DNA of 5,841 bases from a virus: IMG/VR virus record IMGVR_UViG_3300029794_000110; one strand, given 5' to 3'. Each line of letters opens with the position of its first letter. Position 1 is the first letter of the stretch. Under the pieces are notes generated by a model. It had not been told where the DNA came from. It made no database searches and was given only the letters and a program-made list of their open reading frames with translations. A program made the position numbers and the translations under genes. Shown piece after piece: positions 581-761 of the stretch.

Positions 581-761
581 TGTGGAAAAGTTGAAAACTA
601 CTATTTTATAACGATAGAGCGTAAAAAACAACTGAAAAACGTTGTTGAAAACTTTGTTGAAAACTTGTTGAATTGTTGAAACACTCTGTTGTGCTAAAGT
701 TTAACAATGTTGAAATGTTGAAAACTATGTGGAAAATGTTGAAAACTATGCTGAAAAAGCC
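581..761 (+). repeat. Iteron-like array of at least 10 direct copies of the core (T)TGTTGAAA(A)C, including variants GTTGAAAAC, CTGAAAAAC and TGTGGAAAA, spaced about 10-12 bp apart. A 21-23 nt unit TGTGGAAAA(T)GTTGAAAACTA occurs at both ends (581-601 and 728-750).
   Basis: Copies at 588-598, 631-640, 642-652, 654-664, 665-672, 673-682, 708-715, 716-725, 737-746 and 751-759. The A4-5 tracts recur at roughly helical periodicity. Confidence 0.8.

Follow-up and report, generated by a model that had tools for sequence, protein, structure and literature searches.

The locus and its repeat array

The DNA analysed here, IMG/VR virus record IMGVR_UViG_3300029794_000110 (5,841 nt, referred to as the window), represents a single circular gokushovirus genome (5718 nt) with a 123-nt terminal overlap. 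This report concerns an array of short direct repeats at positions 581-758 and the sequences that border it on its left. All of the genes (VP4/Rep, M15 peptidase, VP5, VP3, VP1 and VP2) lie on the + strand. VP4/Rep runs from 5126 via the overlap to 427, with its stop codon at 425-427, and the array sits in a non-coding stretch of approximately 500 nt between that stop codon and a + strand promoter at 870-898. The promoter is of the sigma-70 type, with a perfect TTGACA-17-TATAAT arrangement and a TG extension, and serves the downstream gene block; its distance from the array is 111 bp, matching the value of about 110 bp given in an earlier reading made from the sequence alone (hereafter, the sequence-only reading). 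Human-gut metagenomes hold the identical genome as free contigs of 5.7-5.8 kb.

The repeat unit, TGT[T/G]GAAAAC, is present in 10 strong and 2 weak copies, all on the + strand, which bears out the earlier description of more than 10 direct repeats. A tandem pair at 581-598 consists of TGTGGAAAA and GTTGAAAAC, beginning at 581 and 589. A first distal cluster at 631-682 holds a weak copy at approximately 631 and strong copies at 643, 655, 666 and 674, and a second distal cluster at 708-758 holds strong copies at 708, 716, 728 and 737 and a weak, non-conserved one at 749. Four of the strong copies (643, 655, 716 and 737) are exact matches to TGTTGAAAAC; the other six are not. The window contains 16 matches with at most two mismatches, compared to 7.3 +/- 2.5 in shuffled sequences, and 0 of 200 shuffles reached 16. 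When a weight matrix derived from host origins was applied at a threshold of at least 8 bits, 13 matches were found in the window versus 2.1 in shuffles, and 10 of the 13 were inside 581-747, or 3% of the genome. The longer bracketing repeat noted earlier was also found, as TGTGGAAAA(T)GTTGAAAACTA at 581-600 and 728-748, the two copies differing by a 1-nt indel. On the other hand, the region had been described as built almost entirely of repeats, and the boxes fill only about half of the 180 bp.

Copy-to-copy spacings are 8, 42, 12, 12, 11, 8, 34, 8, 12, 9 and 12 bp. Taken literally, the proposal that the copies lie one helical turn apart does not hold, as the spacing is 8-12 bp with longer gaps, but the copies do share one 10.5-bp register across the whole 170 bp (resultant R = 0.76-0.78, with 10.5 bp as the best period), and this phase is conserved among relatives. 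The array had further been proposed to be a phased A-tract block of the kind associated with bent DNA, and we judged curvature by phase statistics alone. The A-tracts do follow the helical repeat (R = 0.66 for a 10.5-bp period, P = 0.005), and this phasing too is conserved. The constraint is not on the A-tracts only, however: the non-A half of each unit, TGT[T/G]G, is as conserved as the A-tract, and any curvature of the array is probably a by-product.

A DnaA-box dialect shared with Ruminococcus and Oscillospiraceae

We scanned bacterial genomes for the motif, taking one genome per species and covering at least 120 loci, and many Ruminococcus, Oscillospiraceae and Clostridia assemblies were among the matches listed. 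In 8 of the 120 loci listed, a gene with DnaA signatures and dense clusters of the motif were found in the same 8-kb locus, with up to 18 motifs per 300 bp. Pfam confirmed DnaA in the four loci that we detailed (L202, L205, L242 and L275) and DnaN in two of these (L205 and L275), and the neighbourhood follows the classic order yidC/jag - dnaA - dnaN - recF - gyrB. In all four loci the clusters occupy the spacer that follows dnaA (in L205 and L275, the dnaA-dnaN spacer); the copies there, up to 18 per 300 bp, are found in both orientations, with TTTTCAACA mixed with TTTTCCACA. Microvirus DNA, whether as prophage or as binning artefact, was not found within the bacterial genome loci.

A count of 8-mers that took no account of the motif gave TGTTGAAA (51 occurrences) and GTTGAAAA (41 occurrences) as the most frequent words in the host spacers, and the same words are the most frequent in the phage intergenic region. 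The logo of 104 host sites reads TGT[T.65/G.35]GAAA-A-C-T and matches the phage unit, including its flanking C-T. The phage unit is the reverse complement of TTTTC[A/C]ACA, so that the canonical TTWTNCACA orientation reads on the - strand. Compared to the DnaA-box consensus TTATCCACA (PMC6669920), TGTGGAAAA (at 581 and 728) has one mismatch and TGTTGAAAA has two, and the perfect canonical box TGTGGATAA is mixed into the arrays of more distant relatives (MG945138 and MT135258; loci L317 and L319). On these sequence grounds we are highly confident that the repeats correspond to DnaA boxes in the dialect of Ruminococcus and Oscillospiraceae, and we consider it very probable that host DnaA would bind the array. 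The shared dialect nominates the same group of bacteria as the host of the phage. The Spo0A 0A-box (TGTCGAA) was considered as another identity for the motif and rejected: the window contains no match to it, and none of the 104 host sites has C at position 4.

Several further observations bear on the dialect. DnaA proteins of hosts with the TTTTCAACA dialect (e.g., L242, 3100-4542, and L202, 5092-6477) carry DHSTI or DHSTV in the DNA-binding domain, at the position where the E. coli and B. subtilis proteins have DHTTV, and this difference may underlie the box dialect. Thermotogota assemblies (L223, L262, L274 and L302, from metagenome-assembled genomes of Mesoaciditoga/Athalassotoga) contain 11-13 TGTTGAAA-type boxes per 300 bp, in L223 with the arrangement (TAG)4-GTAC-TGTTGAAA, and the dialect may therefore extend beyond Oscillospiraceae. 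Many Flavobacteriaceae and Bacteroidales genomes (e.g., Aquimarina; L213, L232, L255 and L261) match the two-copy pattern with 2-3 copies only, and no DnaA signature was found in those loci.

A probable unwinding module beside the array

Directly to the left of the array, at 541-580, lies a set of elements that was absent from the sequence-only reading: DnaA-trios and an AT-rich element, whose presence makes the repeats part of what would be an unwinding module of the origin type. On the + strand the order from 541 to 598 is an AT-rich stretch (541-552); AACTTGTTG (553-561), a phage-specific invariant element; the trios TAG TCG TAG TAG TAG (562-576; 5'-TAG-3' is 3'-GAT-5', and the family consensus is TAG x5); the 4-bp spacer AGTA (577-580); and the tandem boxes TGTGGAAAA GTTGAAAAC. 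The AT-rich stretch resembles a DNA-unwinding element, and in a ranking of the genome's 5718 25-mers by stability those that start at 541-542 come 5th and 7th from the bottom. The run of trios is the only place in the genome with (TAG)n where n is at least 3.

The same elements are found in the candidate hosts. Read on the dnaA-to-dnaN strand, the host spacers end in box-(4-12 nt)-CTACTACTACTACTA-AT-rich-dnaN, and the phage + strand presents the exact reverse complement of this order, with the 4-bp spacer and the tandem box pair, and with the AT-rich stretch at the matching position. Such an arrangement is known as the basal unwinding system (BUS), which was defined in B. subtilis and is predicted to occur widely at the origins of bacterial chromosomes (PMC6669920, PMC8287927). 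A BUS is recognised by at least three trios (3'-NAN-5', preferably GAT) located no more than 16 bp from a box with at most two mismatches, often with tandem boxes (PMC8287927). The phage module has TAG TAG TAG at 568-576 in addition to TAG at 562-564; a spacer of 4 bp separates the trios from TGTGGAAAA, which is followed by GTTGAAAAC; and the proximal boxes have a fixed orientation relative to the trios, with the AT-rich region beyond them. The location is not that of a chromosome origin, as the module separates VP4 from the gene block that follows it in a microvirus of 5718 nt, and for this reason we file it as a BUS-type module outside the chromosome and not as an oriC.

The best-studied counterpart is the BUS at incC of B. 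subtilis (boxes #6/#7 plus trios; PMC6669920, PMC8287927, PMC10201434), with which the phage module shares tandem boxes of fixed orientation, a 4-bp spacer, 3'-GAT-5' trios and an AT-rich region. In incC, boxes #6/#7 and the trios are necessary and sufficient for unwinding, and the distal boxes, which are helically phased as they are in the phage, deliver DnaA and work at variable distance as long as the helical phasing is kept. In both systems the complement of the trios, in the phage (CTA)n, yields TnnT repeats, the motif that DnaD recognises in B. subtilis (PMC10201434). The phage arrangement is identical to the BUS of Ruminococcus and Oscillospiraceae dnaA-dnaN spacers. It differs from the chromosomal modules in being carried by a 5.7-kb single-stranded DNA (ssDNA) phage with an HUH Rep and not beside dnaA/dnaN, and in its co-oriented boxes, the additional invariant AACTTGTTG, an invertible cassette and flanking CG palindromes. 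When the region is folded as ssDNA the array is unpaired, and only a hairpin at 451-481 and the CG-rich blocks fold; the boxes would thus be duplex only in the replicative form (RF).

Conservation, natural variants and inversion

To assess conservation we used 73 relatives picked by VP4 similarity only, with identity measured to the window. AACTTGTTG is 100% identical in these relatives, the trios 92% and the boxes 91.5%, while array columns outside the boxes reach 52% and the flanks 31-59%. At the nucleotide level no other segment of the genome, VP4 and VP1 included, is as well conserved as the 53-nt BUS core. Among the 80 nearest viral contigs (VP4 identity 83-100%), almost every one keeps the position of the array and its spacing (12, 11, 8, followed by 34 or 44, etc.), and the chief variant in length differs by 10 bp, or one helical turn. 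The 10.5-bp phasing is kept in 89 genomes, with a median R of 0.78 versus 0.11-0.36 at other periods. We also found the array in approximately 44 GenBank gokushoviruses from human, pig, monkey, dog, mink and raccoon faeces, almost always unannotated. The sequence-only reading had suggested a search of relatives for the motif downstream of VP4, with recent slippage duplication as the explanation should they lack it; essentially all of them have the array with its spacing, and recent slippage is therefore rejected.

Two kinds of natural variant were informative. KT264799 (5179 nt) keeps only AT-rich-AACTTGTTG-(TAG)5-GGAG-TGTTGAAATGTTGAAT, without the distal array, and this minimal BUS identifies the proximal boxes and trios as the core and the long array as accessory. 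In four genomes (L023, L039, L063 and L070; e.g., at about 5000-5210 in L070) the module is inverted relative to VP4, and AACTTGTTG moves together with it. Because the nearest VP4 relative of each inverted genome is not inverted, the inversion arose repeatedly and independently, at least four times. A module that occurs in either orientation would suit a duplex origin complete in itself, or a DnaA sink, and speaks against a role tied to one strand, for instance that of a single-strand origin or of a nick site on the + strand. To the left of the module is a palindromic block of alternating CG (490-545), and to its right a GC-rich palindromic block (775-845), the sequence of which is poorly conserved while a CG-rich block is present in relatives. 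These alternating-CG blocks, which bracket the invertible cassette, could mediate its inversion.

Modules in larger phages

An exact-pattern scan of viral contigs also matched large non-microvirus contigs, and since these lack VP4 the motif is not VP4-specific. Complete BUS modules with the same tandem-box arrangement were found in three large viral contigs of 43-142 kb: L163 (2280-2480), L175 (approximately 9040-9340, - strand) and L184 (11000-11330). They read AT-rich-(TAG)4-5-4 nt-TGTTGAAAA(GTTGAAAAC) plus distal boxes, and no dnaA signature was found in the fetched stretch of any of the three. The L175 module lies between an integrase gene and a gene for a cI-like repressor of the helix-turn-helix type.

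Arrays of 10-11 TGTTGAAAAC boxes are present in related viral contigs of 77-126 kb (L090, 3461-3626; L119, 7504-7700; L146, 6527-6653), and no trios were found beside them. These arrays are approximately 2.6 kb from a gene that matches Pfam RdRP (PF05183, two-barrel polymerase type), the product of which is 966 aa in L119, with homologues truncated at 353 aa in L090 and 248 aa in L146. A narrower scan of viral contigs for canonical boxes, TAGTAGTAG-N(2-14)-TGTGGATAA, gave 79 matches, roughly what we estimate to be expected by chance. Its sole microvirus, L390, is a coincidental match that has no further boxes and no AT-rich flank.

The sequence-only reading held that no such feature had been described in Microviridae, and we likewise found no description in the searchable literature. 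Searches combining DnaA with Microviridae, gokushoviruses or oriC-like elements gave nothing relevant, and searches for the motif as a string gave primers and unrelated sequences only.

A neighbouring hairpin and the promoter

The DnaA module adjoins, but does not include, a second group of elements immediately after VP4. A GTGTCA motif (442-447, + strand), with 1-3 tandem copies in relatives (41 distinct ones were compared), lies directly upstream of a + strand hairpin at 451-481 (stem 451-460/472-481, loop TATCAAG at 462-468, T-rich tail) and is a candidate binding repeat for Rep (VP4). Compensatory changes are found in four of the nine stem pairs, the loop is invariant across the sequences compared, and the hairpin is stable as ssDNA. 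The hairpin is likely a terminator. Judged by sequence features, GTGTCA and the hairpin (442-481) make a better candidate than the array for a Rep-dependent rolling-circle origin. The reverse complement of the loop, CTTGATA, may correspond to the phiX174/pC194 nick consensus, but it reads on the non-coding strand. The least stable duplex stretch of the genome is at 414-441, at the end of VP4 and immediately upstream of GTGTCA and the hairpin.

At the other end of the non-coding stretch, the near-palindrome CTTGACAATTGTAAAG (869-884) contains the -35 hexamer of the perfect promoter. An Rfam scan of the window gave sub-threshold chance matches only, none of them within the array.

A proposed chromosomal-type unwinding module in a gokushovirus

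The interpretation that we favour, and that we consider somewhat more likely than not, is that 541-758 is a copy of the DnaA-dependent BUS of the host chromosome, carried by a gokushovirus. This retains part of what the sequence-only reading had offered, in that a protein landing pad tied to replication (a host-factor landing pad or replication origin) comes closest, and departs from it in that the protein would not be Rep (VP4) acting on iterons. That the boxes are bound is, as stated above, the firmer claim; for the role of the module in unwinding and as an origin, predicted from its arrangement, we lean towards acceptance with less assurance.

The module would act on the double-stranded RF. 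Host DnaA-ATP would fill the phased boxes on the same face of the helix, with the distal clusters feeding DnaA to the proximal pair, from which a DnaA oligomer would extend onto the TAG trios of one strand and melt the AT-rich end. Since the trio complement supplies DnaD-type TnnT repeats, the bubble could recruit host helicase loaders and would probably load the host helicase. RF replication would then be initiator-dependent and theta-type, and coupled to the host level of DnaA-ATP. As a side effect, many RF copies would be expected to titrate DnaA and to interfere with host initiation, as incC plasmids do in B. subtilis. For rolling-circle synthesis VP4 would rely on another element, probably GTGTCA and the hairpin at 442-481.

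A number of points weigh against this interpretation. We know of no microvirus that needs DnaA, and phiX174-type replication is explained by Rep nicking and the host primosome, so that a second, theta-type mode is not required. The host DnaA-box dialect is itself deduced from genomic context in metagenome-assembled genomes, and the phage boxes all have one orientation while the host spacers mix orientations. The second trio in this genome is TCG and not NAN, leaving three perfect contiguous trios (568-576). We found no counterpart of AACTTGTTG in the BUS of hosts or of large phages, and the interpretation does not account for this invariant element. One contig of 8.8 kb (L047, VP4 84% identical) lacks boxes after the hairpin; its hairpin is kept, with unrelated sequence downstream (6198-6900), and the contig may either have lost the module naturally or be chimeric. 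Finally, the narrow canonical-box pattern found no other microvirus clade with a BUS, and the feature may be confined to one clade.

We weighed several other explanations for the same observations. In one, the multicopy RF would only soak up DnaA, blocking or retiming host initiation or de-repressing DnaA-controlled genes, without any unwinding of phage DNA. Each RF carries about 12 boxes, incC-carrying plasmids inhibit chromosomal initiation in B. subtilis, and the function appears independent of orientation, all of which suit a sink; titration, however, requires no trios, no fixed orientation of boxes to trios and no AT-rich end, the very parts that are best conserved, and of the boxes KT264799 keeps only two, together with the trios. 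We consider a sink alone unlikely. We would give about the same low standing to the idea that melting by DnaA assists rolling-circle replication, either by exposing a VP4 nick site (the invariant AACTTG, 553-558, reminiscent of the phiX174/pC194 CTTG^ATA site) or by promoting extrusion of the hairpin at 451-481. HUH nucleases need a single-stranded substrate, the candidate Rep hairpin is only about 60-90 bp away, and the 100% invariant, phage-specific AACTTGTTG lies inside the predicted bubble. Against this, the module is inverted in four lineages in which the hairpin and VP4 are not, which puts AACTTG on the opposite strand and adds about 250 bp to the distance between melted end and hairpin, and the same module is present in large phages without VP4. 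The case for AACTTG as a + strand VP4 nick site is thereby weakened.

DnaA is also a known transcription factor, and a curved, DnaA-occupied element might, depending on the growth state of the host, tune the promoter at 870-898 or shield it from VP4 read-through. The 10.5-bp phasing of the A-tracts and the position of the perfect promoter 111 bp downstream are in keeping with such a device, which we nevertheless regard as improbable: the sequence that separates array and promoter is unconserved and of variable length, the module is invertible, the trios are left unexplained, and a small unannotated open reading frame (ORF) comes after the module in KT264799, with the annotated VP5 gene about 470 bp further on. 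Less probable still is that the region is a neutral leftover of a captured host origin, a product of recent slippage, or coding. Short ORFs do cross it, but two of these (533-679 on the + strand and 606-845 on the - strand) have no PHROG match, and a coding sequence was rejected in that the length variants of 10 nt are not multiples of 3 and most GenBank records leave the region unannotated. Neutrality is at odds with the selective retention of boxes and trios, and not of spacers, across genomes that are approximately 70-75% identical in nucleotide sequence elsewhere. We place last of all the proposal, made in the sequence-only reading by analogy with plasmids and viruses with CRESS-DNA genomes, that the repeats are iterons for the phage's own Rep. 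Direct repeats near a rep gene would suit it, yet the same motif fills the host oriC beside dnaA, is found in unrelated large phages without VP4, and is shared by close (83-100% VP4 identity) and distant relatives alongside canonical DnaA boxes, while a hairpin with GTGTCA repeats of its own lies elsewhere, at 442-481.

Comparison with known replication elements

DnaA boxes, trios and the BUS are already known from chromosomes, as are DnaA boxes that act as helpers in plasmid and phage theta origins; what appears to be new is a complete chromosomal-type BUS in a rolling-circle ssDNA phage, of which we found no account in the searchable literature. Plasmids and minichromosomes based on oriC (those of E. 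coli, the Spiroplasma and Mycoplasma oriC vectors, and the B. subtilis incA/B/C plasmids) are laboratory constructs that usually carry dnaA or both box clusters. Like them, the phage RF is a small circle with chromosomal-type DnaA boxes that would depend wholly on the host initiator and be expected to compete with the host origin; unlike them, the phage element is natural and viral, and coexists with a rolling-circle system. The origins of P1 (oriR), pSC101, F, RK2 and R6K are opened by their own Rep on iterons, with DnaA as a helper. They resemble the phage in drawing host DnaA to a mobile element by way of origin boxes, and differ in that the phage has no initiator other than its HUH nuclease; to our knowledge, DnaA-trios have not been described in such plasmid and phage theta origins.

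Two other kinds of element invite comparison. The datA locus and other DnaA-box clusters titrate DnaA and have neither trios nor an unwinding element; the phage array is, like datA, a dense cluster of boxes outside oriC, and unlike it has trios and a putative unwinding element. In phiX174, of the same family as this phage, the gene A origin (CAACTTG^ATA) and the primosome assembly site depend on Rep and PriA, respectively. The reverse complement of the hairpin loop (CTTGATA) and the AACTTG motif resemble the nick consensus, and our literature searches found nothing comparable to the DnaA-box/trio module described among phiX174-type elements of Microviridae.

Implications for gut gokushoviruses

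Microviruses are textbook rolling-circle replicators, thought to need only Rep and host factors for elongation and priming. If the interpretation that we favour is correct, a major group of microviruses from the gut of humans and animals draws on DnaA, the master initiator of its hosts, and would have a second replication mode beside rolling-circle synthesis. We tentatively extend this, as a proposal that we hold to be possible and still doubtful, to a portable, invertible origin cassette of the chromosomal type that lets the RF of this gut gokushovirus clade replicate as a DnaA-dependent minichromosome, the type of cassette being shared by unrelated tailed phages of Oscillospiraceae (L163, L175 and L184).

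Natural variation provides material for origin biology. Relatives differ in the spacing, orientation and number of distal boxes, and KT264799 offers a natural minimal BUS of 60 bp outside the chromosome. For the hosts of gut gokushoviruses, the dialect gives Ruminococcus/Oscillospiraceae as a testable candidate; were the reading to hold, the DnaA-box dialect could be used to assign hosts to uncultured phages more generally. For the phages themselves, the finding would bear on replication, on persistence without integration and on disturbance of the host cell cycle: a DnaA-dependent RF would permit a persistent, plasmid-like state timed by the host cell cycle, in competition with the host origin.

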